This document shows positions 20,123 through 39,382 of a stretch of DNA of 64,000 bases, one piece after another (position 1 is the stretch's first letter; every line of letters starts with the position of its first letter). The position numbers were made by a program, and so were the translations under genes. Source of the stretch: an uncultured Acetobacteraceae bacterium (lineage in GTDB: Bacteria; Acidobacteriota; Terriglobia; Terriglobales; Acidobacteriaceae); the NCBI GenBank assembly GCA_964658655.1, contig CAZZZL010000011.1, positions 15,774 to 79,773 of the forward strand. The letters are read 5' to 3'. The notes under the pieces were generated by a model. That model made no database searches, was not told the origin of the DNA, and saw nothing but the letters and a program-made list of their open reading frames with translations.

Positions 20123-20300
20123 GCAGTCCAGACCAATTTGGAACAGCCGTCGTTTTATTTTGAAAAACAGCAATTTGCCGCTGGCATTCTGCGGTGCCGT
20201 TGGATGAGGATGATCGCAGTCCTGATGTTCGGGTGACCAGCGGATAGCGACGATGTCGCCAACTCTGTTGCGTATGCCGGCGCGGGGTGAAGGCGGCGCA

Positions 20301-21452
20301 ATGATCTTCCATGTACTTCCCGAAGTTGAGCCGTTTTCTGAACAGAATGGCGGCTCGTTATCGCGCTGGGCTGCCAACATCCTGCGCGACGATACGGCCC
20401 AGATCGTCTGCCCTTCCTCCGACGGTACGTGGAACTTCCGGGCTGATCGGATTCATAGAAATCGCGGTATGCAACTGTATGGCGTGGCATTGAAAAAACG
20501 CGAGTTTCGCCTGCGCACGGCGCTACGTGTTCCCATCATGCAGTGGTTACTGCGGGGCCTGGCCAACCGGCTGACAGAGGAAGATGTGCTGTACATTCAC
20601 AATCGCCCTGAGTATCTGCTGGCCCTGGGCAGATATGCCCATAAGCGGGCCCGCTTCAAGGTAGTCCTGCACATGCACAACGATCACCTGAGAAACCTGA
20701 ATCCGAACGAAAGCGCGACGCTGCGACCAGATCTCACAGTATTCAACAGCCGTTTTCTCGAAGGTCTCGGGCGCTGCCTGGTGCCGCATATCGGGCGCAC
20801 TGCCGTCATGTACAACGGCGCGGATGAGCATAGCTTTCATCCTGCGGCTGCCACAGTTGTTCCGATCACACCGACTGTACTGTTTGTGGGCCGGCTGGTG
20901 CCGGAAAAGGGTGTGCATGTACTACTTGAGGCCATGCGACTCCTGTCCCAGCAGGGCGTGCGCCTGCAGGCAAAGATTATAGGGAGTGCAGGGTTTGGCG
21001 AGGGTCGCTCGTCGCCATACGCAGATGCAGTGCGCAGAAGCTGTCCGGACAACACGACCTTTATTCCGCACATGGCCGGCGACCGCCTGGCAGAACAATT
21101 TCGCGGGGCATCCATCTTCTGCTGTCCCTCCACCTGGGAAGAACCCTTCGGCATGGTGAATGTGGAAGCGATGGCTTCGGGGCTTCCCGTCGTAGCCTCG
21201 GCGGTCGGCGGCATTCCTGAAATCTTTACGCGGGGTGGAGGATTGCTGGTTCGAAGGAATTCTGCCGTTGAGCTGGCGACCGCTCTCCGGTCGCTTGCAG
21301 AAAACGAGCCGGAACGTGCCAGGCTGGGAGCGCAGGCCTACTGCATTTTCCAGCAGCGCTTTCGCTGGAGCGTTCTCTACCAGGAATATCTCGGCCTGAT
21401 GCATTCCCTGCAGACCATCAGCATGTACCAAGCGTCGGCGGTCGCGAGCTGA
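20301..21452 (+). CDS. glycosyltransferase family 4 (GT-B, Glycos_transf_1)
   Basis: ATG 20301 gives MIFHVLPE. EX7E block: CCPSTWEEPFGMVNVEAMASGLPVVAS. Confidence 0.85.
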   Translation: MIFHVLPEVEPFSEQNGGSLSRWAANILRDDTAQIVCPSSDGTWNFRADRIHRNRGMQLYGVALKKREFRLRTALRVPIMQWLLRGLANRLTEEDVLYIHNRPEYLLALGRYAHKRARFKVVLHMHNDHLRNLNPNESATLRPDLTVFNSRFLEGLGRCLVPHIGRTAVMYNGADEHSFHPAAATVVPITPTVLFVGRLVPEKGVHVLLEAMRLLSQQGVRLQAKIIGSAGFGEGRSSPYADAVRRSCPDNTTFIPHMAGDRLAEQFRGASIFCCPSTWEEPFGMVNVEAMASGLPVVASAVGGIPEIFTRGGGLLVRRNSAVELATALRSLAENEPERARLGAQAYCIFQQRFRWSVLYQEYLGLMHSLQTISMYQASAVAS

Positions 21453-21453
21453 T

Positions 21454-22632
21454 CTATTTTTCGCGGCGATGCCTGTTCATTGGCACCACGTGAACGGTCA
21501 CATCCCGCACTTCGGAAAGAAAGCGATTGATCACCGAACCCCGAAGGAGGATATCCCAGCGTGACCGCGCCGACTGACCGAACACGACGTGGGACAGGTT
21601 CTCCTGCTTGGCAAAGTCGATCAGTGCGTTCGAGACATTCTTGCTCTTCAGCACGACTATTTTCGCGCCAAGTTCGCGGCCGGCGCGCTGATACTCTTCC
21701 ATGCGATGCGCCGCTTCCTGGTCGCTATGGCGAGCGTCAAAATCGGGTGATTCAACCCGGACAACATACCAATCGCTCGAGAGCCTTCCCGCCAGGCGTG
21801 CACCGAGGCGCAGCAGACGATCAGCCCCAGGCCGGGGGGTCAGGCAGACCATCACCTTCTCCGGCATCGGCGCCTGTTCCAGGCCCTGGTTGCGCCGATA
21901 TTCGGCAGCGCGCGTGCCGACTTCCTCTGCCGTCGTTCGCAGGGCAAGCTCGCGCAGCATGTTCAGGTTGCCCTTCCGGAAGAAATTCGACAGCGCCTGC
22001 TCCACTTTTTCCGGCGCGTAGATCTTACCCTGGCGCAGCCGCAGGCGCAGCTCTTCAACCGTGATATCGACGTTCACGACTTCGTCCGCGCGCTTGAGAA
22101 TACTGTCCGGGACAGTCTCGCGGATCTGCGTGTTCGCCGACCGGGCGACCGCGTCATTCAGCGTCTCGATATGCTGAATATTGACGGCAGTCATCACGTT
22201 AATGCCGGCGTCCAGCAGTTCCAGCACGTCTTCGTAACGTTTGCGATTACGTGATCCCGGGACATTGGTATGCGCCAGCTCATCGACGATGCAGGTATGC
22301 GGATGCCTCGCGAGAATGGCGTCAAGATCCATCTCGTGCAACTTGACCGAGCGGTACGCAATCTCTTTCTGCGGGATGATCTCGATGTTCTGAATCATTG
22401 CCTGCGTATCTGCGCGGCCATGCGTTTCGATCAGGCCGATGACGACATCGATGCCCTGCTTGGTGAGCAGGTGCGCGTCTTCGAGCATCTGGTAGGTTTT
22501 CCCTACGCCAGGTGCCGCACCGATGTAGACGCGGAGCTTCGCCGGTTCACGCGTGATCAGTGGCGCCACTTCCTGCAGGTTGCGTGGCTCAGTGTCGGGA
22601 ATCTTCAGTTCGGTCGGCTTGATCGGCTCCAT
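21454..22632 (-). CDS. stand-alone KdpD N-terminal sensor domain plus Usp domain protein (no transmembrane or kinase part)
   Basis: LRVYIGAAPGVGKTYQML (P-loop), VVIGLIETHGRADT, IVDELAHTNVPGSRNRKRYEDVLELLDAGINVMTAVNIQHIETLND, then a Usp-like KVMVCLTPRPGADRLLRLGARLA...VVFGQS. It ends at residue 392. Confidence 0.85.
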   Translation of the reverse strand: MEPIKPTELKIPDTEPRNLQEVAPLITREPAKLRVYIGAAPGVGKTYQMLEDAHLLTKQGIDVVIGLIETHGRADTQAMIQNIEIIPQKEIAYRSVKLHEMDLDAILARHPHTCIVDELAHTNVPGSRNRKRYEDVLELLDAGINVMTAVNIQHIETLNDAVARSANTQIRETVPDSILKRADEVVNVDITVEELRLRLRQGKIYAPEKVEQALSNFFRKGNLNMLRELALRTTAEEVGTRAAEYRRNQGLEQAPMPEKVMVCLTPRPGADRLLRLGARLAGRLSSDWYVVRVESPDFDARHSDQEAAHRMEEYQRAGRELGAKIVVLKSKNVSNALIDFAKQENLSHVVFGQSARSRWDILLRGSVINRFLSEVRDVTVHVVPMNRHRREK

Positions 22633-24140
22633 CAGCCCACCTCGACGATGTGGCGGCTCATGGCTGGTACGCCAGACGGCAAAATGAAGGAAACGGTCGT
22701 GCCCTGGCCCAATTTGCTTTCAATCAGCACCTGGCCGCTTTGTAATTCGATCAGCCGGCGCACCAGTGCAAGTCCTAGACCGGTGCCGCCGATGCCGCCA
22801 TCGCTGGTTGCCTGCCCGGATCCTTCGACGAATCGTCCAAAAATGCGCGGCAGGCGACTGGCCTCGATACCGCGGCCGGTGTCGCGTACAAAGAACTGCA
22901 CGCGGTCGGCAGTCTCCTCTGCTTCGAGCGTGATCGAGCCGCCGGCAGGGGTGTAACGCAGTGCATTCACGATCAGGTTGTCCATCACACTGCGCATGGC
23001 GCGTCGATCTGCCAGGACAGGCGACAGGTCCGCAAAAGCCTTGATCTGAATCTCAACCTGCTGTTTGCGTGCTTCATCCCGATGGCGGTTGCTGGCGTCC
23101 TGCAGAAGGTCGATCGGGCGCAGCCGTTCAAGCCGAAGATCGCGCCGGCCGCTGTCGATCTCTGCCACGTCAATCAGGTCGGCCATCAGATCGTTCAGGC
23201 TTTCGACCGACTGCTGTACCCCTTCGAGCAGGTCGGTCTGCAGAGGGCGGAGCTCGCCGGCAAAGCCACGCAACATCGCATACAGGCCGAGCCTCGCCGA
23301 TTCGAGCGGGTCGCGCAACTTCTCCGACGCAACAGAGATGAACCGGCTTTTGAAGCGGTCCAGGTCCTGCAATTCCGTCATATCTTCAAGCACACTCACG
23401 GCGCCAAGTAATTTGCCGTCGGCATCGCGCATGGGCGTCGTGCGCAGACGGTATGACTTGTCGGCATTGCCGATGCGCATCGGGAGAACGGCATTCTCGC
23501 CTTCGGTCGTTCCTGAGGAAAAGACCGGGCGCTGCATGGAGACGGCATTGCGCACCGCTTCGAGAATCCGTTCGCCGCCCGGGGTATTGGTCAGTGCCAT
23601 GCGGTCGCCTGCTGCTTCACCCAGAATGCTGTCGGCGGCATGGTTCAGCTTCAGAACATGGCCGCGCGCATCGGTGACAATGATGGGCTCGAAGATGGAT
23701 TGAACAATGGCATCGGAAAGCTGTAACTCCATCTGCCGGCGGCCCTGCTCAGTCTCGCGCAGATCGCGCAGACGGACTGCCATGCGGTTCACCTCGGTCG
23801 CGATTGTGCCGAGTTCGTCGCGATGGCTCCACTCAATACGCTGATCGAGATTTCCCTGGGCAATGGAACGCGCGGCGGCTGCAGCTGCACGCAATGGCTG
23901 GAGCACCAGGAAGGCTGTGGCCAGGGCGACGAAGAAGGCAATGAAAACGATGATGGATGCCGCGACGCGCACGTGATGCGCCAGTACATCGCGTGTCGCA
24001 ATGGCCGCCTCGCGTGTCAGATGACCGTGGTCGAGCGCAACAGAGTGGCTGAGGGCAGCGCCCGCAAAGATACCCGCTCCTGCCGTCAGGGCGAGGAGGA
24101 GGGTGAGGCCGAAGATCAAGCGACGGGGCAGACTCAGCAT
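22632..24140 (-). CDS. membrane HAMP-PAS histidine-kinase-like protein lacking the H-box histidine
   Basis: Two TM segments, HAMP (IAQGNLDQRIEWSHRDELGTIATEVNRMAVRL) and PAS. The DHp has FISVASEKLRDPL in place of SHELRTPL. The CA domain is intact (DNLIVNALRY, VRDTGRGI, GGTGLGLALV). Its stop overlaps the KdpD-N start (ATGA at 22630-22634). Confidence 0.85.
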   Translation of the reverse strand: MLSLPRRLIFGLTLLLALTAGAGIFAGAALSHSVALDHGHLTREAAIATRDVLAHHVRVAASIIVFIAFFVALATAFLVLQPLRAAAAAARSIAQGNLDQRIEWSHRDELGTIATEVNRMAVRLRDLRETEQGRRQMELQLSDAIVQSIFEPIIVTDARGHVLKLNHAADSILGEAAGDRMALTNTPGGERILEAVRNAVSMQRPVFSSGTTEGENAVLPMRIGNADKSYRLRTTPMRDADGKLLGAVSVLEDMTELQDLDRFKSRFISVASEKLRDPLESARLGLYAMLRGFAGELRPLQTDLLEGVQQSVESLNDLMADLIDVAEIDSGRRDLRLERLRPIDLLQDASNRHRDEARKQQVEIQIKAFADLSPVLADRRAMRSVMDNLIVNALRYTPAGGSITLEAEETADRVQFFVRDTGRGIEASRLPRIFGRFVEGSGQATSDGGIGGTGLGLALVRRLIELQSGQVLIESKLGQGTTVSFILPSGVPAMSRHIVEVG

Positions 24141-24218
24141 AAGACCGTGTGTTTCCAGTCTAAGGGATAGCGCCGCTGTGAGAAGAAAAGAAGCGCAGCG
24201 ACAGGGTCCCGCTGCAGC

Positions 24219-28670: not shown

Positions 28671-31193
28671 CTACTTTTTTGCGGCGGCCGAGCGCTGGCG
28701 CGCGTCCTCGAGCAGGGCATCATACCGCGGGTCGCCGCTGAGTGATTTGAAGCTGGCACTCGCCACCATTTCATCTTCGTCGGTGAAGGGCAGATCGTGG
28801 TCTACCGCGTCCTTCAGAATGGTCAGCGCTTCATCCTTTTTCCCCTGCAGGGCATAGCACTCGCCGAGGGCGTAGGCAGTCTCGGCCGTATCCGGATCGT
28901 CATGACCGAGGACGCGCAGCCTTGTCGCATAGGCTTCTCGCAGGAACTTTTCTGACTCTGGATAATGCCCTTCGGCGGTCAGCACTTCACCCACGGCGAC
29001 CATGGCTGCCTGGGTGTCGGAATGGTCGTTGCCGAGCGTTCTCTGCAGTGCTTCCAGAGATTGACGCGCTAGCACTTCAGCTTCAGGCAGCTTGCCCTCC
29101 AGTCGCAGAACATCGGCCAGGTTGCCGGCTGTGACCAGCGTCGACCTGTGGTCGGGGCCGAGCTTTTTGCGCTTGGCCTCGAGCGTCTCGCGGAACATGG
29201 CTTCCGCTTCGGGATAACGCTTCTCCTGCGTAAGAGTGAGGGCAAGATTGCCCTCGCTGAGCAACGTTGTCGGGTGGTCCGGGCCGAGCACCTTTCGTTC
29301 GCCATCCACGACTTCACGAAAAGTCTTCTCCGCTTCGGCGTACTTCTTTTCCTGCAGCAGGGTCGCACCCAGGTTGCCTTCTGTCTTGAGCGTCGTGAGA
29401 TGATCGGCCCCGAGACTGTCCCGGTTCATTTCAAAGGTCTCGCGAAACGCTTTTTCCGCTTCCGCAAACTTGCCCTGGTAGGCAAGATCGATTGCGAGAT
29501 TCCCTGCGAGCGATTTCGTAAGTTCATCGGCAGGGCCGAATTTTCTGCGTGCAATTTCGAGGGCCGGTGCATTCTCTTTTTCTGCATCCGGATAGCGGCC
29601 CAGGTCCGCCAGCGCCATACCCAGTGTCATCATGGAGGCCACGGTACCCCGGTCTTCCGGTCCGTTCACGCGGCGACTGGCTTCGACCTCCTCCCGCGCC
29701 AGCTTCTCCGATTCAGCATAGTGGCTCTCTTCATTCAATACGGTCGCCAGTGCATCCATCGAACGCAATGTATCGCGATTATTTTTTCCGAACAGCTGGG
29801 TCCTCGTCGCCAGCGCCTGTCGGGTGAGTGACTCGGCCTGCGGATACAGCCCGAGCTCCTTGTATACCGTTCCCATCACCTGCATCAGCTGGGCCTGGAG
29901 GATCGGGTCCTGTGCGAGACCGCTCTTGATCTGTGTCGACGCCTTATCCAGAACCTCGCGCACACGGATGTCATTGCCGCGCGCCTGGCCGGGGTCCGAC
30001 ACCTTGAACATGTTCGTCATGAAGTCGGAGATACGATCGGCGCGGTCGCGTTCACGCCGGATGCGTCGCAGCTGGACAGCCTCGGTCGCGGCGAAGGCCA
30101 GCAGCAGCAGGACAGCCGTCGCCGCAAGGGCCACGCCAACACGATGGCGGCGAATGTATTTTCGTGCGCGATATGCAGCGCTTGGCGTATGCGCATTGAC
30201 CGGCTCGTCGCGCAGGTAGCGGCGCAGGTCTTCGGCAAGTTCATGCGGGGATGCGTAGCGGCGTCCACGATCTTTCTCAAGCGCCTTGAGCGCGATGGCA
30301 TCCGGGTCGCCATGCAGTTGCCGCGTGAGCGTCGACAAATCGGTCGAGCGATTTTTCGCGGTCGATGTGGAGAGGTCACCCGACGTCCGCAGCTTGGTAC
30401 TTGGCCGGGGTGCGTCGTCCTCTCGCAGGCTGCGCAGACCCTCGTCATACGCCAGCTTGTTGAGGTTCAAAGGCAGTGCGCCGACGAGCAGCTCATACAA
30501 AACGACGCCGAGCGAATACACATCGCTGCGCGTATCGATATCGTGGCCGGAAGAGTCGGCCTGCTCCGGACTCATGTAGCCGAGCGTCCCGATGACCGCA
30601 CCCAGTTGTGTATACATGGTGTCGCCACCGAGGCGATGCGAGGTTGCCTTGGCAACGCCGAAATCGATGATCCGCGGTACTGGTATTCCATCGACTTCCG
30701 TCACGAGGATGTTTGAGGGTTTCAGATCGCGATGGATGATCGCCTTCTGATGCGCATGCTGGACGCCTTCGCAGACCAGCACAAACAGCTCCATGCGCTG
30801 CCGCATCGACAGGCGATGGCGATCGCAATATGTCGTGATGGGCGAACCGGCGACATATTCCATCACGAAGTAAGGACGTCCTTCGATGGTCGAGCCCGCG
30901 TCGTACACCTTGGCGATGGCCGGGTGGTCCATCATCGCCAGGGCCTGCCGTTCAGACTCGAAGCGAGCAACGACCTCGCGCGTATCCATGCCGGCCTTGA
31001 TCAGCTTGACAGCTACCCGGCGGCGCACCGGCTCCTTCTGCTCAGCCAGCCAGACTTCGCCCATGCCGCCCTGACCGATGAGCTGGATCAGGTGATAGGG
31101 ACCGATGACCAGAGTTGTCGGCAGGGACATCGCATCGGGCACCGAAGATGAAAGCTGCGTCTCTTCGTTTCCGCTGGATGGGTGCGTGGACAT
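28671..31193 (-). CDS. Hanks-type Ser/Thr protein kinase with one TM helix and a long C-terminal TPR array
   Basis: GQGGMGEVWLA, VAVKLIK, IIHRDLKPSNILV, DFGVAKA, GTLGYMSPEQ. TM helix VGVALAATAVLLLLAFAA. It is followed by about 10 TPR units. Confidence 0.9.
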   Translation of the reverse strand: MSTHPSSGNEETQLSSSVPDAMSLPTTLVIGPYHLIQLIGQGGMGEVWLAEQKEPVRRRVAVKLIKAGMDTREVVARFESERQALAMMDHPAIAKVYDAGSTIEGRPYFVMEYVAGSPITTYCDRHRLSMRQRMELFVLVCEGVQHAHQKAIIHRDLKPSNILVTEVDGIPVPRIIDFGVAKATSHRLGGDTMYTQLGAVIGTLGYMSPEQADSSGHDIDTRSDVYSLGVVLYELLVGALPLNLNKLAYDEGLRSLREDDAPRPSTKLRTSGDLSTSTAKNRSTDLSTLTRQLHGDPDAIALKALEKDRGRRYASPHELAEDLRRYLRDEPVNAHTPSAAYRARKYIRRHRVGVALAATAVLLLLAFAATEAVQLRRIRRERDRADRISDFMTNMFKVSDPGQARGNDIRVREVLDKASTQIKSGLAQDPILQAQLMQVMGTVYKELGLYPQAESLTRQALATRTQLFGKNNRDTLRSMDALATVLNEESHYAESEKLAREEVEASRRVNGPEDRGTVASMMTLGMALADLGRYPDAEKENAPALEIARRKFGPADELTKSLAGNLAIDLAYQGKFAEAEKAFRETFEMNRDSLGADHLTTLKTEGNLGATLLQEKKYAEAEKTFREVVDGERKVLGPDHPTTLLSEGNLALTLTQEKRYPEAEAMFRETLEAKRKKLGPDHRSTLVTAGNLADVLRLEGKLPEAEVLARQSLEALQRTLGNDHSDTQAAMVAVGEVLTAEGHYPESEKFLREAYATRLRVLGHDDPDTAETAYALGECYALQGKKDEALTILKDAVDHDLPFTDEDEMVASASFKSLSGDPRYDALLEDARQRSAAAKK

Positions 31194-31357: not shown

Positions 31358-33238
31358 CTAAAGCCGCTGGTAGCGCGCCAGAATTTCCGCCAGTGTGACA
31401 GTGCCTTCCAGAGTTCCGCGCGCCGCGCGATTCTGAATGGGCAGGATGGACCATCGCGCGAGATGAGGAATCGCACTATCGATCGGCATATCCGGGAACA
31501 GGTTTGGCGCCCGCTCGGTTGGAATGGCCTTCACCACCTGAACATCCGGACCATGCGACGAGGCCGCCTCCCGTAGATCTGCGCGCGTCATGACGAACCA
31601 GCTGCCGTCTTCCATGCGCAGGAAAAACGCAGGCGATTTCGAATCTTCAATCTGCTGCTCGACGGACCCCAGGGTGTCCGAGCCGGAATAAATCGGTAGG
31701 TTATTGGGGCGCAGCGCATCTTCAAGATGCAGGCCGACTTCCTCACGTTGTTCCTCCATCGACGGCAGGTTCAGGCCATCCTGATGCGTGAAGACCTCGA
31801 AGATCGGCGTCGGCTGCAGCGAGCGAGAGAGCAGGTAGGCAATGGTGTTTGCGAGAATGACCGGCAGGATGATGGAGTAGTTGCCACTCACCTCCAGCAC
31901 CATGAACACAGACGTCAATGGTGCTCGCAAAAAGCCCGCGAACAGGACGCCCATGCCGACCAGCGCGTAGGAGCCGATCGATATCGGCAGGTGCGGGAAG
32001 TAGAACTTCTCGAATGTCCCTGTTGCGGCTCCGAGCATGGCTCCGGTAAACAGTGTCGGCGCGAACATGCCGCCCGGGGTGCCGCTGGAAAACGAGACCG
32101 TGGTTGCGAGAATTTTGAAGGCAGCCAGTGCGAGCAGGAAGTGCCAGGTGAACTGGCCGTGGATGGCCTGGTCCATCACCTCGTAGCCAGGGCCCATGAC
32201 CTGCGGAAAGCCGAAATAGCCGATCAGTCCGACAATCAGCCCTGCGACTGCGGGCTGCAGGTAGAACGTCCAAGTGGGCAGGTTGCGCAGCTTGGGTCGC
32301 AAAGACTTTAAGGCGCGTGAAAACACTGATGCCGACAGCCCGCCAACGACACCAAGCAGCGCATAGGCGAGCAGCTCGCGGCTATCGCTGATAGTGACAG
32401 ACGGGATACGGAACATCGGCTCCGATCCCCAGAAGGTACGCGCCACCACGACTGCCGAAATAGCGGAAAGGACGACCGAGCCGAGGACCGCGGCACTCCA
32501 CTGGCCGATGACTTCTTCAATCACAAACAGGATCGCCGAAACCGGCGCATTGAATGCCGCAGCCAGGCCGGCAGCGGCGCCGATGGGCGCAAACACGCGC
32601 AGACGCTGCCGCGATAAGCGCAGCTTGCGGCTGACAATCGAAGCGACTCCCGCGCCGATCTGCAGCGACGGATCTTCGGGTCCCAGCGAGAAGCCGCCGC
32701 CAATGGCGAGTGCGGCCGTGATGAATTTGCCGATGACTGTCTTGAACGAAATAAAGCCGTTGTAGATATAGAGCGCGGCTTTGGTCTGGTTGACTCCTGA
32801 TCCACGCGCAGCCGGGAAGAACTGCTGCACCAGGAAGGCCACCAGCAGACCCATTCCCGTCGGGACGAAAATCAGCCGCAACTGGCCGGGGTGCGGTGAC
32901 GAACCAAGCGACAGGATCTGTACCCATGAGATTGCAATGCGGAATGAGACGACCAGCAATCCCGAGATGACGCCGATGAAGATGGAGAGCACCAGGAACA
33001 ACCGCTCATCACGGGTAGGCGCAAGCTTCTGAATATCCATCTGCTCGGGCAGCGCCTGCACCGGCTCGCGCAGCTCCGACTCCGGCACCAGCGGCTTTGA
33101 AATTGCCTCGCCGCCCGCAGGATTGGGTAGGGGTTCTTCCGGGGAGGTCATCTCCGCTGCTTCGGACGTGTTTTCCGCGGTCACAATCGTCCGTCCCCGG
33201 TCCGTCGCGCGGTTATTCTCCATCGCGCCTTCACTCAT
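31358..33238 (-). CDS. ClC-family chloride channel/antiporter with C-terminal CBS-like region (alternative start 33223)
   Basis: ARGSGVNQTK, GPEDPSLQIGAG, GMFAPTLFTGAMLG. About 10 TM segments plus a soluble C-terminal tail of about 150 aa. Confidence 0.9.
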   Translation of the reverse strand: MSEGAMENNRATDRGRTIVTAENTSEAAEMTSPEEPLPNPAGGEAISKPLVPESELREPVQALPEQMDIQKLAPTRDERLFLVLSIFIGVISGLLVVSFRIAISWVQILSLGSSPHPGQLRLIFVPTGMGLLVAFLVQQFFPAARGSGVNQTKAALYIYNGFISFKTVIGKFITAALAIGGGFSLGPEDPSLQIGAGVASIVSRKLRLSRQRLRVFAPIGAAAGLAAAFNAPVSAILFVIEEVIGQWSAAVLGSVVLSAISAVVVARTFWGSEPMFRIPSVTISDSRELLAYALLGVVGGLSASVFSRALKSLRPKLRNLPTWTFYLQPAVAGLIVGLIGYFGFPQVMGPGYEVMDQAIHGQFTWHFLLALAAFKILATTVSFSSGTPGGMFAPTLFTGAMLGAATGTFEKFYFPHLPISIGSYALVGMGVLFAGFLRAPLTSVFMVLEVSGNYSIILPVILANTIAYLLSRSLQPTPIFEVFTHQDGLNLPSMEEQREEVGLHLEDALRPNNLPIYSGSDTLGSVEQQIEDSKSPAFFLRMEDGSWFVMTRADLREAASSHGPDVQVVKAIPTERAPNLFPDMPIDSAIPHLARWSILPIQNRAARGTLEGTVTLAEILARYQRL

Positions 33239-34490
33239 GCATCTGCTCCGCCTGCATGTCAGACAGGCTGGGTACCTCGGCCAGTCTCAGCAGGATGGCG
33301 TCATCGCCGGTTGGGCTGCCGCAGGCCTTTGCCGTCGCCAGTTCAGTATCGTTGATGAGCTTGCGCTCCTTCTCCTGGGCAACCGGATCGACCGCCAGGC
33401 CGGCCACAGTCAGGTGCTCGGGTTCGGCCTGCCAGCGTGTCGAAACCGCTGCCAGCCCGGCTCCTGCCGCATCAGGCGAACCGCCAAGCTGACCACCTAT
33501 CTGTGAGTCGCCTTTCGCCTGGAGACAGGCTTCCATCCGCCGTCGAGCAATCTCGCGGTCATTGATCAATCGTGTCGCCAGCATCGTCGTGGAGGTCGCA
33601 GTCAATGGGTCCAGCACGATGATGCGGCCGATACGATGCAACTGATCCTGATCCATCTGGCGCAGCTCTGCACTTCGGTGCACATAGGACGGCACATTCA
33701 TCGACTTCTGCAGGTAGCGATACGCCGCAGCATAATCGCCGACTCCATAGCTCGTATCCGCAGCCCCCTGGAGAGCCGTAAAGTCTTCCGGATGCTGTGC
33801 CAGCAGCTGGCGGTAAAGTTCGAGGGCATCGACAGGGAAGTGCGACTCAACCAGCAGGCCGGCAATTTTCAGCTGCACTTCAAGATCGCTTGAAGGCGCA
33901 TTGCCGGAGGCGACCAGCAGTTCGGAGCGAGCCTGGTCGAACGATCCGCGGGAGATCAGGTAGCGTACCAATTCAAGCCGTGTCTCACGGCGCCTGATGT
34001 AGCCATCGCCTTCCCAATTGCCGTAGATCGCGGCATGAAAGTCCTGCTTGGCCAGGTCTTCGTTGCCGGCACGCGCGGCCAGCCGGGCCAGTTGAAGATT
34101 GATCTCCCCGCTGCCGGGCTCGGCCTCACGGAGAGTGTTGAAGTAGGCCGTTGCCTCCTGAATGCGTCCCGCAGAAGCCAGCGCGGAGGCCAGGGCGATC
34201 TCCATCTGCCGTTCTCCGGCCGGCGGCGCATAGAGCAGTGCGGACCGGAAGTCGTTGATGGCTACGATGGGTTGTTGCGCGTTCAACGCAGCTTTACCAC
34301 GACTAAACCAGCGATTCGCCAGCTCTTCCCGATGATCCGAATAGGATTTAAAAAGGAAGTGGGTGGCGACGGCAAGCAGTATGGTGATGAAAAGGACTGA
34401 CAGCAGCGCTACTGCGTCTTTAAAGACCAGCGCTCTCACCTGGTGACGCTCAATCGGACTAAGGTGAGATTTAAAGGCGGGAATCTGCAT
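33231..34490 (-). CDS. membrane-anchored TPR-repeat protein
   Basis: One N-terminal TM helix (AVALLSVLFITILLAVATHFLF) followed by TPR-like repeats. Its stop overlaps the longest ClC ORF by 8 nt. Confidence 0.65.
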   Translation of the reverse strand: MQIPAFKSHLSPIERHQVRALVFKDAVALLSVLFITILLAVATHFLFKSYSDHREELANRWFSRGKAALNAQQPIVAINDFRSALLYAPPAGERQMEIALASALASAGRIQEATAYFNTLREAEPGSGEINLQLARLAARAGNEDLAKQDFHAAIYGNWEGDGYIRRRETRLELVRYLISRGSFDQARSELLVASGNAPSSDLEVQLKIAGLLVESHFPVDALELYRQLLAQHPEDFTALQGAADTSYGVGDYAAAYRYLQKSMNVPSYVHRSAELRQMDQDQLHRIGRIIVLDPLTATSTTMLATRLINDREIARRRMEACLQAKGDSQIGGQLGGSPDAAGAGLAAVSTRWQAEPEHLTVAGLAVDPVAQEKERKLINDTELATAKACGSPTGDDAILLRLAEVPSLSDMQAEQMHE

Positions 34491-34695: not shown

Positions 34696-35745
34696 ATGGA
34701 ACGGCGCAGCTTTATCAAACAGGCAGCAGCTACGGCGGCACTCGCGAGCGTGGAAAAAGCGATCGGCCAGCCGGGCGACAAAGCGGCGTCCCTTCAGGGA
34801 GCAGCCGCGCGCACACCCGCGCCGATTGTCGCGACCGTGAATGGCATCGGGCGGCGTAAGCTCGGCCGCGCGGATGCGGAAGTCTCCATCATCGGTATCG
34901 GCGGCTATCATCTCGGCTTGCCCAGTGTCACCGAGCAGGACGCCATTCACATCATCCGGACAGCGCTCGATAGCGGCATCAACTTCCTCGATAACTGCTG
35001 GGATTACAACGACGGCGTGAGCGAGCAGCGCATGGGCAAGGCGCTGGCCGACGGCTATCGCCAGAAGGCGTTTCTGATGACGAAAATCGACGGCCGCACC
35101 GGCCCGGCTGCGACGCAGCAGCTCGAACAATCAATGTCTCGCCTGAAGACCGATCACATCGACCTGGTGCAAATCCACGAAGTCATTCGTATGACAGATC
35201 CAGAGCAGGCGTTCCAGCCCGGCAACGTGATCGATGTTTTGAAGCAGGCGCGCAAAGACGGAAAGATTCGTTTCATCGGCTTCACCGGTCATAAGAGTCC
35301 GGAGATGCATCTACACATGATCGAAATCGCAGACCGGCATGGATTTACCTTCGATACCGCCCAATTCCCGGTCAATGCGCTGGACGAGCACTATGACAGC
35401 TTTGGTCAGAAGGTGATACCGGTTGCTCACCAGCATGGCATGGCCGTACTGGGGATGAAGCCACTGAGCAATGGCGCAATCCTGAAGACCAACGCAGTAT
35501 CAGCAGTCGATGCGCTTCATTATGCCATGAGCGTACCTGTGACTATTACAATCACGGGCTGCGAGTCGATCGCTAACCTGGAACAGGCGCTCGGCGTCGC
35601 CAGAAACTTCAAGCCCATGGATGTGCAGCAGAAAATGGCTGTCCTGCAGAAGGTCGCTCCGTCTGCCATGGCCGGCGAGTTCGAGCGGTATAAAGTGTCG
35701 CATATCTATGACGGCACAATTAACAATCCGCAATGGCTGGGATGA
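34696..35745 (+). CDS. aldo/keto reductase with twin-arginine (Tat) signal peptide
   Basis: AAGGAG precedes ATG 34696. MERRSFIKQAAATAALASV is an RRxF[IL]K Tat motif. AKR core: NFLDNCWDYNDG, FLMTKI, DLVQIHEV, FIGFTGH. Confidence 0.85.
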   Translation: MERRSFIKQAAATAALASVEKAIGQPGDKAASLQGAAARTPAPIVATVNGIGRRKLGRADAEVSIIGIGGYHLGLPSVTEQDAIHIIRTALDSGINFLDNCWDYNDGVSEQRMGKALADGYRQKAFLMTKIDGRTGPAATQQLEQSMSRLKTDHIDLVQIHEVIRMTDPEQAFQPGNVIDVLKQARKDGKIRFIGFTGHKSPEMHLHMIEIADRHGFTFDTAQFPVNALDEHYDSFGQKVIPVAHQHGMAVLGMKPLSNGAILKTNAVSAVDALHYAMSVPVTITITGCESIANLEQALGVARNFKPMDVQQKMAVLQKVAPSAMAGEFERYKVSHIYDGTINNPQWLG

Positions 35746-36632
35746 CTATGAGGAATGCTACGCAATCGGCGGTTGAAACTGCTGCGGTGCAAGGCAGGCG
35801 TGCCTCACTGGAAGCAATACTCCGCGCATACGGCAGTATGATGGTTGCTTATTCCGGCGGCGTCGATTCTGCCTATCTCGCCTACGCCGCCTGCGAAGCC
35901 CTGGGCCGGGAAAATGTTCTGGCGGTGCTGGCAGATTCGCCCAGCCTGGCCCGCAGCCAGATGCGCGATGCAGTTGCCTTTGCTGAAGAGCAGAGGATCC
36001 CGTTGCTTGTGGTCGAGACCAACGAGATGGAGCAGGAAGCTTACACGCGCAACGATGCGCAACGTTGCTTCCATTGCAAGGATGAACTATTCGACGTACT
36101 GGAGCGCAAGCGAATCGAAACCGATTTCGCAACAGTTGTCTACGGTCTGAATGCAGACGACACTAGGGACTATCGACCTGGTCACGGCGCTGCGAACAAG
36201 CACAGCGTGAAGGCACCGCTGGCCGAGGCCTCACTCACCAAGGAGGACGTCCGGCAACTTGCAGCAGAGGCTGGACTGCGCGTCTGGGACAAGCCTGCAT
36301 CGGCATGCCTGTCCTCACGCATCGAGTATGGCCGCAAGGTAACGCCCGAAGCGCTGGAACAGGTCGAGTCCGCGGAAGAGGCGTTGCGCGACCTGGGCAT
36401 GATTCGCTTTCGTGTTCGTCATCATGGAACGGTCGCCCGCATCGAGATTGCACCCGAAGAAATGGCGCAATGGTTGTCGCCGCAGCACTTTAAAACGATC
36501 AGCGACCGCGTACGGGCATGCGGATTTCAATTCGTGTCTGTCGACTGCGATGGCTACCGGTCAGGTGCCATGAATGAGGTGCTGCCGTTTTCAGTATTGC
36601 TTGCAGCCTCTGAAGGAAAACGAACCGCATGA
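35742..36632 (+). CDS. larE: LarE, PP-loop ATP-dependent sulfur transferase of nickel-pincer nucleotide biosynthesis
   Basis: PP-loop VAYSGGVDSAYL, then CFHCKDELF and KPASACLSSRIEYG. ATG 35742 overlaps the AKR stop (ATGA). The track start 35733 is also possible. Confidence 0.85.
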   Translation: MTMRNATQSAVETAAVQGRRASLEAILRAYGSMMVAYSGGVDSAYLAYAACEALGRENVLAVLADSPSLARSQMRDAVAFAEEQRIPLLVVETNEMEQEAYTRNDAQRCFHCKDELFDVLERKRIETDFATVVYGLNADDTRDYRPGHGAANKHSVKAPLAEASLTKEDVRQLAAEAGLRVWDKPASACLSSRIEYGRKVTPEALEQVESAEEALRDLGMIRFRVRHHGTVARIEIAPEEMAQWLSPQHFKTISDRVRACGFQFVSVDCDGYRSGAMNEVLPFSVLLAASEGKRTA

Positions 36633-37996
36633 GAATTGCTTATCTTGAATGCTTCGCCGGTATCGCCGGTGATATGTTTCTTGGTGCCCTGGTCGATGCC
36701 GGTGTCGAGCCGGCTCTGCTGCAGGCCGCTGCCGACTCTCTGAAACTTGGTGTGCAACTTGAATTTAAGAAGGTCGATCGCAGCGGCATCCAGTCCACGA
36801 AGGCCCGAGTTCTACTGAACGGAGTCCAAGCTGAGGACGCTGGTGATGTCCAGGGCCATGTCCATGAGCACGCCGAAACGCACGAGCACTCGCATACGCA
36901 CGTCGACGATCAAGGCCATTCTCATACCCACACCCACTCGCATTCGCATAGTCATGAGCATGTGCACGGACGCAGTCTGTCAGAGATCCGTCACCTGATC
37001 GGCCACGCATCGATCACAGCGCGGGCCAAAGAGATCGCATTGCTGGCGTTCAATCGGCTTGGTACTGCAGAGGCAAAAATTCACGGCATGCCGATCGAGA
37101 ATGTTCATTTCCACGAAGTCGGCGCGGTGGATGCCATCATTGATATCGTCTGTGGCGCAGTGGGCGCTGATGCCCTCGATGTCGATGCATGGTACTGCTC
37201 CTCTATCAATACAGGCTCAGGATTTGTGGATTGTGCACACGGCCGCTTTCCCGTTCCAGCGCCCGCGACGCTTGAACTTCTGCAGGGCATGCCGGTTTAC
37301 AGTGAAGGCCCTGCCAAAGAGATGACCACTCCGACCGGCGCAGCACTGGTGAGCGCGCTTTCCTGCCGGTTTGAGCCAGTGAAAGCATTACGCAGTGACC
37401 GGACAGGCTATGGAGCGGGTTCCCGCAATCCGGAACGATTTCCCAACGTGCTGCGTCTCCGTGTCGGCACTACCGAAACCGTTAGCGATGCACAGGAGAC
37501 CAGTTCCGATCTAAACGATACAGTCACTGTGCTTGAATGCGCGATTGATGACGGCACGCCCGAGCTTCTGGCGCATTCTGCTCAACTCGTGATGGAGCAT
37601 GGCGCCCTCGACGTCATGCAGCAGCCCGCGGCAATGAAGAAGGGGCGCCTCGGAACGTTGTTCACAGTCATCTGCAGGCCCGCAGACGCGGACCACATGA
37701 ACCACCTGCTTTTACGCGAGACCTCGACGCTGGGCATTCGTTTTCGTAATGAACAGCGGACAATCCTGCAGCGGAGCATCGTAGACGTGTCTACTGATTA
37801 CGGTGTCATCCGCGTGAAAGTCGGCAGCAGTAATGACCAGATTGTCAATACTGCGCCCGAGTTTGAGGATTGCCGCAAAGCAGCCGTAACGCATAACGTT
37901 CCGCTTAAGCAAGTGATGCAGGCCGCTCTTATCGCCTATGCCATGCAGGCCCAAACTGATTCAGACGCTCACCACGTCGCTGCAGGTTTCCGATGA
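36629..37996 (+). CDS. larC: LarC, nickel insertion (cyclometallase) protein, DUF111 family
   Basis: MRIAYLECFAGIAGDMFLGALVDAG, a His-rich tract HVHEHAETHEHSHTHVDDQGHSHTHTHSHSHSHEHVHG (about 36845-36975), HFHEVGAVDAIIDIV. A single uninterrupted ORF. ATGA overlap with larE. Confidence 0.9.
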   Translation: MRIAYLECFAGIAGDMFLGALVDAGVEPALLQAAADSLKLGVQLEFKKVDRSGIQSTKARVLLNGVQAEDAGDVQGHVHEHAETHEHSHTHVDDQGHSHTHTHSHSHSHEHVHGRSLSEIRHLIGHASITARAKEIALLAFNRLGTAEAKIHGMPIENVHFHEVGAVDAIIDIVCGAVGADALDVDAWYCSSINTGSGFVDCAHGRFPVPAPATLELLQGMPVYSEGPAKEMTTPTGAALVSALSCRFEPVKALRSDRTGYGAGSRNPERFPNVLRLRVGTTETVSDAQETSSDLNDTVTVLECAIDDGTPELLAHSAQLVMEHGALDVMQQPAAMKKGRLGTLFTVICRPADADHMNHLLLRETSTLGIRFRNEQRTILQRSIVDVSTDYGVIRVKVGSSNDQIVNTAPEFEDCRKAAVTHNVPLKQVMQAALIAYAMQAQTDSDAHHVAAGFR

Positions 37997-38802
37997 GGTC
38001 CGACGTACTACTTTCTCTTCTCGAACAGGTGAAGTCCGGAGCCACTTCACCACACACCGCAGCAGAGCAGTTATCGCAGATATCTGTAGAGGACGCCGGC
38101 TTCGCCAAGATCGACCATCACCGGTCGCTGCGTATCGGTATGCCTGAGGTGATCTACGCAGCCGGTAAAACTCCGGAGCAGGTCGCCGAGATTTTTCTTC
38201 GCATGTCGCGCTCAGGCGAAAGTGTTCTGGCCACGCGAGCCTCTTCGGATGCGTGGCATGCGGTGCATCGAGCGGTACCCGAAGCTGTGTATCACACGAT
38301 GGCAAGGATCATCGGACTCAAGGGTAATGCAGCGCTGCCGCAAGCCCGTAAAATTGCCGTCGTCAGCGCCGGCACCAGCGATATGCCGGTTGCCGAAGAA
38401 GCCGCATTGACAGCGGAGTACATGGGCATAGACGTTGACCGGGTGTATGACGTCGGCGTAGCCGGTCTGCATAGAATCCTTGCGCAACAGAACCTGTTAC
38501 GAACTGCGAGTGCCGTGATCGTCTGCGCCGGTATGGAAGGCGCGCTGCCAAGCGTGGTCGGTGGGCTGGTCGGCGTCCCGGTCATCGCTGTTCCAACCAG
38601 TGTTGGCTATGGCGCTGCGTTTGGCGGAGTGGCTGCGCTGCTTGGCATGTTGAACTCCTGCTCCCCCAATGTGACAGTCGTCAATATCGATAACGGATTT
38701 GGTGCGGCCTACATCGCCACGATGATTGCCCGTGCGGGATGCGCATCCGAAGAACATGAAGCCCTAGATTCGCCGGAGATGATGCAGTCCATTGATTCTT
38801 GA
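37993..38802 (+). CDS. larB: LarB, pyridinium-3,5-biscarboxylic acid mononucleotide synthase (AIR-carboxylase-like)
   Basis: KIAVVSAGTSDMPVAEEAALTAEYMGI, AGMEGALPSVVGGLV..PVIAVPTSVGYG. ATGA overlap with larC. Confidence 0.9.
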   Translation: MRSDVLLSLLEQVKSGATSPHTAAEQLSQISVEDAGFAKIDHHRSLRIGMPEVIYAAGKTPEQVAEIFLRMSRSGESVLATRASSDAWHAVHRAVPEAVYHTMARIIGLKGNAALPQARKIAVVSAGTSDMPVAEEAALTAEYMGIDVDRVYDVGVAGLHRILAQQNLLRTASAVIVCAGMEGALPSVVGGLVGVPVIAVPTSVGYGAAFGGVAALLGMLNSCSPNVTVVNIDNGFGAAYIATMIARAGCASEEHEALDSPEMMQSIDS

Positions 38803-39382
38803 TCGGCTGAAACGAGAGACCTCCGAACTTCACCTGGCAACGGAAGCCGCCATGCCTTTTAATGATCCTACGTTTGACTTGACCGCATATCGCCGGCTAT
38901 TGCTGCGCACCTATGGATTTTTCGCCACGTGGGAAAATGCGGCTTCGCATGTAGAAGATCCAGCCATCAAGTCGCTGCTTCAGGATCGATCCCGTCTGAA
39001 GGACCTTCAATACGATCTTCAGTGGCTTGAAGAGCCACTACCAGGCGAAGTGTTGCCGATGGACCGTTTGCCGGACTTCAGCAGTCCGGCAAATCTGCTG
39101 GGCTCCATGTACGTCACCGAGGGATCGACCCTTGGAGGACAGGTGATTGCGCGAATGCTTGAAAGAAAGCTTGAGCTCGCACACGGTAATGGTAATTCTT
39201 TTTTTGTTGGACATGGCCCGGCGACCGGGAACCGCTGGAAAGCGTTCTGCCGATTTCTCGTCGACTGGTCCAGCGCTCATCCTGGCGCAGAAGACGCGAT
39301 GGTCCGCGCAGCGTGCAAGACTTTTGAAGCTTACAAATCCTGGGTCGGCAGCACCGTTAAACAGGGGGCCGCGCCGCTATGA
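38792..39382 (+). CDS. bphO: biliverdin-producing heme oxygenase (BphO-type)
   Basis: TTG start. LKRETSELHLATE carries the proximal His context. GSMYVTEGSTLGGQVI is the heme-oxygenase signature. It overlaps the larB end by 11 nt and the bphP start by ATGA. Confidence 0.8.
   Translation: MILDRLKRETSELHLATEAAMPFNDPTFDLTAYRRLLLRTYGFFATWENAASHVEDPAIKSLLQDRSRLKDLQYDLQWLEEPLPGEVLPMDRLPDFSSPANLLGSMYVTEGSTLGGQVIARMLERKLELAHGNGNSFFVGHGPATGNRWKAFCRFLVDWSSAHPGAEDAMVRAACKTFEAYKSWVGSTVKQGAAPL

Follow-up and report, generated by a model that had tools for sequence, protein, structure and literature searches.

A family of His-less histidine-kinase-like proteins in Acidobacteriota encoded beside a stand-alone KdpD serine kinase

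A sensor kinase-like protein with glutamate at the phospho-acceptor position

What can a protein with the layout of a sensor histidine kinase do once its phospho-acceptor histidine is gone? The question is raised by a gene in the window (the whole 64,000-nucleotide stretch of DNA analyzed here) whose product carries a degenerate H-box. The gene and its parts are as follows.

22632-24140, minus strand: His-less histidine-kinase-like gene, an ORF of 502 aa with the layout 2TM-HAMP-PAS-DHp-CA
24051..24119, minus strand: predicted TM helix 1, residues ~8-30 (Kyte-Doolittle >1.6 at 7-14 plus 19)
23901..23987, minus strand: predicted TM helix 2, residues ~52-80 (hydropathy)
23763..23909, minus strand: HAMP domain, residues 78-126 (Pfam PF00672, 45.5 bits)
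23370..23714, minus strand: cytoplasmic PAS domain, residues 143-257 (Pfam PAS_4 and PAS)
23148..23351, minus strand: DHp (HisKA) domain, two helices without His, residues 264-331 (Pfam HisKA)
23304..23342, minus strand: degenerate H-box, whose codons from 23342 to 23304 read F-I-S-V-A-S-E-K-L-R-D-P-L (direct reading; register from Pfam, PDB, and pairwise alignments)
23322..23324, minus strand: GAG, Glu273, at the phospho-acceptor His column, which varies within the family
23319..23321, minus strand: AAG, Lys274, at His+1, where a catalytic Glu/Asp is expected
22674..23009, minus strand: CA (HATPase_c) domain, residues 378-489 (Pfam, 91 bits)
22635..22655, minus strand: C-terminal tail R496-H497-x-x-E500-V-G502, conserved in the Acidobacteriaceae subclade only

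The first TM helix is also helical in the AF2 monomer model (mean pLDDT of 63, DHp of <60; used as a basis for secondary structure only), and the loop alignment shows a His-rich periplasmic loop of ~25 residues between the two TM helices. The same model places the DHp helices at residues 255-292 and 298-330 and leaves the C-terminal tail disordered. The PAS domain is strongly conserved family-wide. No NCBIfam model scored above its cut-off for the protein, the best being WalK (212 bits; cut-off, 725) and PnpS (198 bits; cut-off, 400). Pfam searches recovered neither DUF4118 nor GAF, and the anti-sigma kinase-type HATPase_c_2 model scored 20.5 bits, under its cut-off of 27.4.

The placement of Glu at the acceptor column by the initial annotation depends on the alignment register, which we examined with several types of alignment. 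Pfam HisKA matched residues 264-331 over model positions 2-66 of 66 (32.4 bits against a cut-off of 26.9), and there was no Pfam match to HisKA_2, HisKA_3, or HWE. Searches of the PDB with phmmer aligned the H-box FISVASEKLRDPL to FVGNVSYELRTPL of DivL (PDB code 4q20; E = 4e-29) and to FVSNVSHELRTPL of VicK (PDB code 4i5s), setting E273 opposite the DivL Tyr and the VicK His. In pairwise phmmer alignments of residues 251-345 with 150 representatives (one per 50%-identity cluster), the residue opposite E273 is His in nearly all canonical relatives. The register held throughout. The His residues of the protein lie at positions 32, 38, 40, 55, 56, 106, 161, 167, 353, and 497, and since every one of them falls outside the DHp helices (~255-330), both helices are His-free, as had been noted; the proposed His-free span of about 95 residues was slightly too long, for the unconserved His353, at the start of the CA domain, lies 80 residues downstream.

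The ATP-binding boxes, previously described as intact, proved to be so: in a 31-sequence alignment with a mean column identity of 58%, N392 (N box), D420/G422/G424 (G1), F434/F437 (F), and G452/G454/G456 (G2) are invariant. More than 100 columns of this alignment are invariant; as these include the CA motifs and many DHp residues, the protein is under selection and not decaying.

Loss of the histidine is a family-wide character

We then surveyed the acceptor column across homologs. His is found there in 0 of 121 sequences (the 120 closest homologs plus the query), which instead have Q (52), D (25), E (23), R (13), K (7), or A (1). A subclade embedded in kdp loci (29 Blastocatellia-type metagenome loci) has A (10), G (8), D (4), S (4), N (2), or E (1), and the acceptor His is likewise missing in the loci of 80 Acidobacteriaceae species. 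The clade's common mark lies one residue further on, where Lys or Arg occupies His+1 in 121/121 and 29/29 members, giving a diagnostic H-box of the form x-K/R-L-R-x-P-L. Glu at the acceptor column is just the state of the window's own sub-lineage (at least 84% identity). The x-K/R clade is monophyletic in a neighbor-joining tree, and its nearest His-bearing relatives, one of which (P0133) is followed by a response regulator, are only 36 to 40% identical. Relatives are encoded in 457 species-level genomes and occur in at least two classes of Acidobacteriota; cultured carriers include Silvibacterium bohemicum S15, Acidobacteriaceae bacterium KBS 83, and Acidipila rosea. The family is best read as a new, so far unnamed and conserved, family of histidine pseudokinases: the histidine kinase fold is kept and the acceptor His is gone in all orthologs.

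Measured against a canonical HisKA sensor kinase, the protein has the HisKA-type DHp and the CA boxes and lacks the acceptor His, the His+1 acid, the His+4 Thr/Asn, and an adjacent response regulator. At His+4 the window has Asp, and the family as a whole shows T, Q, K, D, G, or N. Judged from these residues, kinase and phosphatase chemistry is abandoned and not mimicked, because Lys/Arg is fixed at His+1 and the Thr/Asn position at His+4 is variable; with all three sites lost, neither autophosphorylation, phosphotransfer, nor phosphatase activity is expected at the usual site. Other residues that might serve the whole family as acceptor were considered and discarded. His497 is present in 118 of the 121 Acidobacteriaceae sequences, but the C-terminal tail that bears it (RHxxEVG) is missing in the kdp-embedded subclade. 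A His at column 306, in DHp helix 2, is unconserved (53 of 121) and absent from the window, and Ser272 is replaced by Ala in the window's closest relatives.

The fixed partner is a stand-alone KdpD-N/Usp chain

The decisive context, which the initial annotation had missed, is an obligatory pairing of the His-less gene with a gene for a stand-alone KdpD-N/Usp serine kinase. The features of this partner and of the flanks of the pair are as follows.

21454-22632, minus strand: partner gene, 392 aa, a stand-alone KdpD N-domain (residues 31-238) followed by Usp (residues 257-375)
22495-22521, minus strand: partner Walker A, G38-T46, GAAPGVGKT, identical in PDB 2r8r
22279-22284, minus strand: partner Walker B, D117-E118, in VDELAHTN, identical in PDB 2r8r
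22630..22643, minus strand: gene junction, an SD-like GAGGTG and then TGATG, in which the TGA stop and the ATG start of the partner share 1 base
24194..24216, minus strand: terminator-like hairpin after the upstream FG-GAP/ASPIC gene (consensus match only)

The partner scored 309 bits with Pfam KdpD and 39 bits with Usp and matched PDB 2r8r with an E value of 1e-65. It has both Walker motifs followed by Usp and is devoid of TM, GAF, and DHp-CA regions, as befits a stand-alone KdpD-N/Usp chain; it does not belong to the exact curated NCBIfam subfamily KdpD_non_kinase, since its score of 434 bits lies below the cut-off of 550. The KdpD N-domain is an atypical Walker-type serine kinase that phosphorylates Ser162 of KdpB and thereby switches off the KdpFABC K+ pump, and within full-length KdpD this activity is controlled by the sensing domains (PMC11018627).

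In all Acidobacteriaceae loci (83/83) the next gene downstream, in the same orientation, encodes KdpD-N/Usp, as it does in 23 of the 24 metagenome loci that have downstream sequence. A start codon is possible between -8 and +30 nt from the stop codon in 73 of 92 related loci, with overlap in 31. The two genes are probably cotranscribed, and the hairpin, a consensus match only, suggests that the pair forms its own transcription unit; on the other side, a GT4 gene (20253-21452, plus strand) is convergent to it. The two-gene operon encodes no receiver domain. A scan with the sigma-70 consensus, which is uninformative for Acidobacteria, detected no promoter-like site. That the catalytic residues are missing and the gene pairing is obligatory suggests that the His-less protein functions by protein-protein contact without autokinase activity, and signaling without a His-Asp phosphorelay is most likely.

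Genomic contexts of the pair

The pair occurs in distinct genomic contexts. In Blastocatellia-type loci the gene order is kdpF-A-B-C, His-less kinase-like gene, KdpD-N/Usp, KdpD C-half, and KdpE. The KdpD C-half there is a DUF4118-GAF-HisKA-HATPase protein with a canonical SVSHDLRTPL motif, and as these loci already have a canonical kinase and its regulator, the His-less protein is an extra component. It is not itself a KdpD C-half, for it lacks DUF4118 and GAF and matches KdpD (PDB code 6lgq) only weakly (E = 1e-11). Its DHp-CA region is 27 to 28% identical to the C-half of the same locus (27% in locus L085), a value at which a recent duplication of the C-half can be dismissed.

In all 80 Acidobacteriaceae species, the pair stands apart from kdpFABC, the KdpD C-half, and KdpE (±10 kb around the protein). 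Locus L088 has a second, independently His-less HAMP-PAS kinase-like gene right after KdpD-N in its kdpFABC locus, within 7 kb of which we found no KdpD C-half or KdpE. In this locus and in L091 and L109, a His-less gene lies beside KdpD-N/Usp, with the KdpD C-half and KdpE not adjacent. The conserved unit is therefore the pair and not a two-component system. In the Acidobacteriaceae, 69 of the 80 species loci have an upstream CLC gene with the same orientation, directly adjacent in 22; in the window ~7 kb, with four unrelated genes and the terminator-like hairpin, separates it from the pair. As the pair there is not beside kdp genes and is usually near a CLC transporter gene, its target in this family could differ.

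For the genome-wide kdp content of Acidobacteriota species, we relied on the tables of the 2024 study that established the KdpD N-domain serine kinase (PMC11018627), in which split serine kinase and histidine kinase chains are commonest in Acidobacteriota (31 of 37 species). Diadenylate cyclase is absent from 29 of these 37 species, which makes regulation by c-di-AMP, as demonstrated for the short KdpD of Deinococcus, unlikely in them; the other 8 do possess a cyclase. By the same tables, Acidobacteriota are the main group having the stand-alone chain without chain-borne K+-sensing domains or c-di-AMP, and the paper leaves open how that chain is controlled (PMC11018627). Acidipila rosea has a clear ortholog of the window's partner, KdpE, two KdpD chains, and no cyclase.

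Comparison with known systems

To our knowledge, few histidine pseudokinases have been studied so far, DivL and PsmA among them. DivL of Caulobacter crescentus (PDB code 4q20; PMC4211667), previously named as a precedent for the window's protein, is indeed its closest solved relative by sequence. Like the present family, it combines an upstream PAS with a HisKA-type DHp and a CA domain that lack the acceptor His, and it works by protein contact, with DHp-CA as a binding or sensing surface (PMC4211667). DivL differs, however, in having Tyr at the His column and retaining Glu at +1 (SYELRTPL), where our family has a drifting residue followed by Lys/Arg (E-K in the window), and its partner is the response regulator DivK~P with output through CckA, whereas the fixed genomic partner here is a Walker-type serine kinase. 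The present family belongs to Acidobacteriota and not to the alphaproteobacterial cell-cycle setting of DivL; the two are, as judged by these sequence differences, not orthologs, and their likeness is at the generic HisKA level. PsmA of Streptomyces venezuelae (PMC12963549) is likewise a conserved histidine kinase-like protein whose H-box has neither the His nor the D/ExxT/N phosphatase motif; it has been shown not to autophosphorylate and to act via protein-protein interaction. Unlike our family, it is a hybrid-kinase-like polarisome component that binds DivIVA, and it differs in phylum, architecture, and partner.

Split KdpD systems, including that of Deinococcus radiodurans, consist of a KdpD-N/Usp chain and a TM-GAF-DHpCA histidine kinase chain (PMC11018627, PMC5716572). 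The gene downstream of the His-less one in the window is exactly the former chain, and in the Blastocatellia-type loci the row of genes continues with the KdpD C-half and KdpE, completing the split system. In contrast, the available parts of these descriptions give two chains and no extra His-less HAMP-PAS-DHp-CA gene. Among open-access papers, a scope that provides no proof of novelty, we found no report of kdp loci that contain a His-less kinase. Kinases of the WalK/VicK, PhoR/PnpS, and KinB types share the TM-HAMP-PAS-DHp-CA architecture, but the His-less protein lacks their acceptor His and adjacent response regulator and scores far under the respective cut-offs. RetS of Pseudomonas aeruginosa, which retains a His, targets GacS by way of DHp heteromers. 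This histidine kinase-like protein (PDB codes 6dk7/6dk8), which signals by contact with another kinase, was among the PDB matches (E ~4e-13); for the His-less protein, in contrast, nothing points to heteromers with another histidine kinase.

Proposed function and alternatives

We propose, with a probability of roughly 0.55, that the pseudokinase is a membrane sensor or scaffold for the split KdpD serine kinase and acts on it by contact and not by phosphorelay. It would be anchored in the inner membrane by two TM helices that a short periplasmic loop connects, with the HAMP, PAS, DHp, and CA domains in the cytoplasm, and it would be coproduced with KdpD-N/Usp through translational coupling. The two might assemble into a noncovalent counterpart of full-length KdpD (serine kinase, Usp, membrane sensor, and DHp-CA), in which the pseudokinase would tether the serine kinase at the membrane and gate it in response to cues reaching the TM/HAMP/PAS module and the ATP-bound CA domain. 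Whereas the sequence features, the family-wide loss of the His, the gene pairing, and the kdp-operon context are observed, we infer that the two proteins bind each other, which of them controls the other, and what signal is sensed. The CA ATP pocket and the DHp surface are still strongly selected, and a pure scaffold role leaves the invariant pocket unexplained. On its own, the E. coli KdpD N-domain can phosphorylate KdpB in vitro, and c-di-AMP regulates the short KdpD of D. geothermalis without any such partner (PMC11018627); because both manage alone, a partner is not intrinsically required. The cyclase present in 8 of the 37 Acidobacteriota species and the distance of the Acidobacteriaceae pair from kdp genes also speak against the proposal.

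A more elaborate version, which we regard as tentative and short of probable, casts the His-less protein as the input device that the split KdpD serine kinase of Acidobacteriota has been lacking, with serine kinase action on KdpB as its output and no response regulator involved. It would replace both the TM/GAF K+ sensor of full-length KdpD and the control by c-di-AMP and Usp that short KdpD of the Deinococcus type employs. The invariant Lys/Arg at His+1 and the invariant ATP pocket might then make up a DHp-CA clamp that depends on ATP and switches conformation with no phosphotransfer, and in Acidobacteriaceae the module beside CLC may couple K+ and Cl-/H+ handling in acid-soil bacteria. Should the proposed model be right, it would provide a first case in which a sensor module of the two-component type has been rewired so as to drive a nonhomologous protein kinase.

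Alternatively, the protein could modulate the canonical KdpD C-half/KdpE system, either by binding KdpE, as DivL does DivK~P, or by forming inhibitory kinase heteromers, as RetS does with GacS. Its place in one gene row with KdpD C-half and KdpE in Blastocatellia-type loci, the appearance of DivL and RetS among its solved relatives, and a conserved DHp surface that could bind a regulator are all consistent with such a role. We consider it unlikely, since 27 to 28% identity to the C-half of the same locus does not befit a recent duplicate likely to heterodimerize, and the pair is kept without an adjacent KdpD C-half or KdpE in the 80 Acidobacteriaceae species and in L088, L091, and L109.

It is about equally improbable that the protein is an active kinase with a noncanonical acceptor, be it Ser/Thr on KdpD-N/Usp or KdpB, the His of the KdpD C-half in trans, or its own His497. 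The invariant N, G1, F, and G2 boxes call for a nucleotide-dependent function, His497 is well conserved in Acidobacteriaceae, and GHKL-fold Ser kinases exist (SpoIIAB, RsbW, and PDK/BCKDK). Against this, the His+1 general base is gone, the RHxxEVG tail does not extend to the kdp-embedded subclade, and around the H-box the family has no Ser, Thr, Tyr, or His common to all members. With HATPase_c_2 below its cut-off and a DHp domain present, the protein is also not a Ser/Thr kinase of the SpoIIAB/RsbW type.

Still less probable is that the Acidobacteriaceae pair has been redeployed to the neighboring CLC Cl-/H+ transporter, instead of or besides Kdp. The frequent upstream CLC gene and the detachment from kdpFABC in all 80 species would fit, but family-level synteny alone can explain the adjacency, four genes and a hairpin intervene in the window, and the partner remains 64% identical to kdp-embedded KdpD-N proteins with intact Walker motifs.

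The initial annotation had also suggested, as one option, that Glu273 is a phosphomimetic that locks a once-normal kinase in its "phosphorylated" state. Glu is acidic and is retained in the window's sub-lineage, yet we hold this reading to be very improbable. It fails because the acceptor column varies across the family (any of Q, D, E, R, K, A, G, S, and N), sister lineages using Q, R, K, A, G, S, or N there, whereas Lys or Arg invariably comes next; the neighboring catalytic residues have disappeared as well, and the operon supplies no cognate response regulator. The accompanying view of a nonphosphorelay pseudokinase thus stands, while that of locked-state signaling does not, as the column is not selected for negative charge. 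The weakest reading, that of a decaying gene, an assembly error, or a functionless strain-specific mutation, has the missing His and nothing else in its favor and is refuted by an intact reading frame, relatives in 457 species-level genomes, >100 invariant columns, a GAG codon two base changes from the His codons CAY, and the recovery of 100% of sampled words of the window stretch in two independent moss-metagenome runs (DNA metagenomes only); the observation is real and neither an error nor a strain quirk.

The family is large, ancient, and cleanly defined by its diagnostic H-box and fixed genomic partner, and it furnishes a candidate controller for a stand-alone KdpD serine kinase that has neither chain-borne K+-sensing domains nor c-di-AMP. 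Database labels for its members are at present "KinB" at JGI and just "ATP-binding protein" at NCBI; labels such as "sensor histidine kinase KinB" are corrected by the present finding.

A histidine kinase-like protein without an acceptor histidine

The minus-strand ORF at 22632-24140 encodes a 502-aa histidine kinase (HK)-like protein, in which two N-terminal TM segments, separated by a loop of ~25 residues in the hydropathy profile, precede the following modules.

residues 78-126 (-), HAMP domain (Pfam)
residues 143-257 (-), PAS domain (Pfam)
residues 264-331 (-), HisKA domain (Pfam, 32.4 bits against a cut-off of 26.9)
23322-23324 (-), GAG codon of Glu273, within the ORF
residues 378-489 (-), HATPase_c domain (Pfam, 91 bits)

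The minus-strand codons from 23342 to 23304 read F-I-S-V-A-S-E-K-L-R-D-P-L, and the HisKA profile places E273 in the acceptor column, no other DHp family in Pfam matching the protein. We tested this register separately from Pfam by a phmmer search of the PDB, in which the H-box aligned with FVGNVSYELRTPL of DivL (4q20, the best match; E = 4e-29) and with FVSNVSHELRTPL of VicK, and by pairwise alignments to 150 cluster representatives, in which E273 stands opposite His in nearly all canonical relatives. All His residues of the protein (positions 32, 38, 40, 55, 56, 106, 161, 167, 353, and 497) lie outside the DHp helices (~255-330), the His-free stretch after E273 comprising 79 residues rather than the about 95 first estimated. 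Each of the N, G1, F, and G2 boxes has its motif residues, which do not vary within the family. Thus, His-free DHp helices, a concordant register, and intact ATP-binding boxes confirm what the initial annotation had read from the sequence, namely, a Glu in place of the acceptor His.

Two other segments of the protein are distinctive. The periplasmic loop between TM1 and TM2 (residues 31-57; ~23970-24050, -) is His rich in this lineage (SHS..DHGH..AHH), with His in 25 to 50% of the homologues at several columns, and might serve in pH or metal sensing in acid-soil bacteria. The C-terminal tail R-H-x-x-E-[VA]-G (residues 496-502; 22635-22655, -) is kept in the Acidobacteriaceae subclade (His in 118/121), also in loci where this gene and the next do not overlap. 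The tail, which may serve as a docking peptide, is missing from the kdp-embedded subclade of the Blastocatellia type.

Divergence of the acceptor column

A survey of the protein and its 120 closest homologues (Acidobacteriaceae, 58 to 94% identity) recovered no His at the acceptor column, which is occupied by Q (52), D (25), E (23), R (13), K (7), or A (1). Glu is restricted to the sub-lineage of the window (at least 84% identity), with Gln in the next lineage and Asp, Arg, or Lys in others. In this set, His+1 is always K or R, replacing the catalytic Glu/Asp, and His+4 varies. What is fixed in the family is that the entire catalytic triad of the H-box has been lost. When one genome per species was scanned, 457 genomes contained relatives; the top 80 all belong to Acidobacteriaceae/Terriglobales, with KBS 83, Acidobacterium sp. 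S8, and Silvibacterium bohemicum S15 among them as cultured strains.

In a full-library HMMER search, the x-K/R H-box (any non-conserved residue at the acceptor column, Lys/Arg at His+1) without His extended down to ~43% identity, and the nearest His-bearing proteins, of the FIGVASHELRTPV type, showed 36 to 40% identity. When the DHp-CA region was used to build a neighbour-joining tree, the x-K/R sequences grouped together in a single clade. A second subclade, from metagenomes, shows A (10), G (8), D (4), S (4), N (2), or E (1) at the acceptor column and K/R at His+1 in 29/29; its genome-derived members, P0126 and P0198, are labeled Blastocatellia by NCBI. P0198 (L087 1864-2628; MAG GCA_045807765.1) is the single His-Lys member inside the clade, keeping the acceptor His with Lys at +1 (VASHKMREPL), which may represent either an intermediate state or a reversion. 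Together with its counterparts in L116 and L117, P0198 belongs to the short forms of 240 to 254 aa, consisting of DHp-CA alone without TM, HAMP, or PAS, that lie between kdpC and KdpD-N.

As in DivL and PsmA, the HK fold is probably retained for binding and sensing without the His, but the protein is orthologous to neither: DivL, which acts in the cell-cycle network of alphaproteobacteria, has Y-E at the H-box, and PsmA is a polarisome protein of the hybrid type. Nor is it a KdpD C-terminal half, as it lacks the DUF4118 and GAF domains of the latter. Many members are annotated in JGI as [quoted passage not shown]; NCBI uses "ATP-binding protein" for the His-less members and "sensor histidine kinase" for the sole His-bearing one. 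Since the acceptor His defines a sensor histidine kinase, KinB-type labels are not supported, and the neutral NCBI name is more apt. We conclude that, among the already known histidine pseudokinases, these proteins make up a genuine and conserved family that has not been described so far.

Linkage to a stand-alone KdpD N-domain

The gene directly downstream is unusual and informative as the partner of a pseudokinase family.

21454-22632 (-), stand-alone KdpD N-domain plus Usp (KdpD-N/Usp), overlapping the His-less HK gene by one base (TGATG)

A GAGGTG Shine-Dalgarno-like motif for its start lies within the upstream coding sequence. Its product contains a KdpD N-terminal domain (309 bits) and a Usp domain in Pfam, lacks TM segments, a GAF domain, and a kinase core, and scores 434 bits against the NCBIfam model "KdpD-like non-kinase potassium sensor" (cut-off, 550). 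With a terminator-like hairpin 3' of the upstream FG-GAP gene and a convergent downstream neighbour, the arrangement resembles an operon of just these two genes. The 64-kb window holds no kdp pump gene and no response regulator for the His-less HK.

KdpD-N/Usp directly follows on the same strand in 83/83 Acidobacteriaceae loci, where it is better kept than the His-less HK (74 to 95% versus 58 to 92% identity). A start codon for KdpD-N/Usp is possible at -8 to +30 nt from the stop of the His-less HK gene in 73/92 loci, with overlaps in 31. The Blastocatellia-type order is kdpF-A-B-C, His-less HK, KdpD-N/Usp, a DUF4118-GAF-HisKA-HATPase gene (the KdpD C-terminal half, with canonical SVSHDLRTPL), and KdpE. 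Among 32 metagenome loci, KdpD-N is next in 23 of the 24 whose sequence extends far enough downstream, 15/23 have KdpC in front, and the KdpD C-half and/or KdpE follows in 8/9. Pairing across both groups identifies the His-less HK plus KdpD-N/Usp as the conserved unit. An ordinary response regulator follows P0133, the closest His-bearing relative. In one kdpFABC locus, where neither a KdpD C-half nor KdpE occurs within 7 kb, the gene immediately after KdpD-N encodes P0136 (L088 5811-9595; ALASEQLEEPF), a separate and more degenerate His-less HAMP-PAS-DHp-CA protein; this lineage has the reversed gene order, degenerate H-box and G2 boxes, and a C-terminal extension of ~250 residues with no Pfam match.

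A CLC (Voltage_CLC) gene lies upstream of the His-less HK gene on the same strand in 69 of 80 Acidobacteriaceae species loci, usually preceded by a TPR gene; it is directly adjacent (<400 nt) in 22, with about one gene between in most others. In the window (CLC, 31358-33238, -; TPR, 33231-34490, -), four unrelated genes (~7 kb) intervene.

Functional implications

As Silberberg et al. 2024 (PMC11018627) showed, the KdpD N-domain acts as a serine kinase of an atypical, Walker A/B type; its target is Ser162 of KdpB, and it inhibits KdpFABC at high K+. According to that study, the serine-kinase activity of full-length Escherichia coli KdpD responds to K+ only when lipids surround the protein, and c-di-AMP activates the stand-alone KdpD/Usp of Deinococcus geothermalis. 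The authors also note that Ser kinase and His kinase are most often found on separate chains in Acidobacteriota and Chloroflexota; their tables list split chains in 31/37 Acidobacteriota species and no diadenylate cyclase in 29/37 (PMC11018627). Acidipila rosea has a clear orthologue of the KdpD-N/Usp partner, KdpE, two KdpD chains, and no cyclase. The His-less gene is not mentioned in that study, and among the open-access papers searched we found none tying a pseudokinase to kdp.

We thus have an HK-like membrane protein that lacks the acceptor His, the acid at His+1, and a conserved Thr/Asn at His+4, whose ATP pocket and DHp surface are under strong selection and which is predicted to be co-translated with a KdpD serine-kinase chain. 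We propose, with a probability of about 55%, that the two associate non-covalently to form a counterpart of full-length KdpD, in which the pseudokinase would anchor the serine kinase and gate it according to signals from the TM/HAMP/PAS module and the nucleotide-bound CA domain, the output being KdpB phosphorylation with no phosphorelay. By analogy with established HK structures, the invariant Lys/Arg at His+1 would adjoin the ATP gamma-phosphate upon docking of CA to DHp, which suggests a possible ATP-dependent clamp instead of catalysis. The family would be a direct, testable answer to the open question of how the stand-alone KdpD serine kinase is controlled.

A DivL- or RetS-like role in modulating the KdpD C-half/KdpE system appears unlikely, as the pair persists where it does not adjoin that two-component system and the protein shares only 27% identity with the KdpD C-half. 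The intact CA domain makes an active kinase with an unconventional acceptor attractive, but no candidate acceptor is conserved family-wide, leaving this reading doubtful. A CLC-linked role, applicable to Acidobacteriaceae, we regard as quite improbable. The phosphomimetic lock raised in the initial annotation is very hard to reconcile with relatives bearing Q, D, R, K, A, G, S, or N: a column that accepts Ala, Gly, Lys, and Arg does not mark Glu273 as a phosphomimetic. A relic, strain-specific mutation, or sequencing error can be dismissed, given two codon positions separating GAG from CAY, an intact H-box stretch in two independent moss-metagenome runs, and the 121 sequences without His.

Other genes in the window

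The window also encodes a bacteriophytochrome histidine kinase (39379-41655, +; PAS_2-GAF-PHY-HisKA-HATPase) and, next to it, a receiver-PAS-HisKA-HATPase protein that keeps the acceptor His in its H-box (42123-43658, +; SIAHEINNPL). Also present are a Ser/Thr protein kinase of the eukaryotic type with fused TPR repeats (28671-31193, -) and a PP2C phosphatase (45790-46668, +). Three genes in a row (35733-38802, +), NAD_synthase (LarE-like), Ni_insertion (LarC-like), and AIRC (LarB-like), look like a nickel-pincer cofactor biosynthesis set and are syntenic in related genomes (L001-L003).
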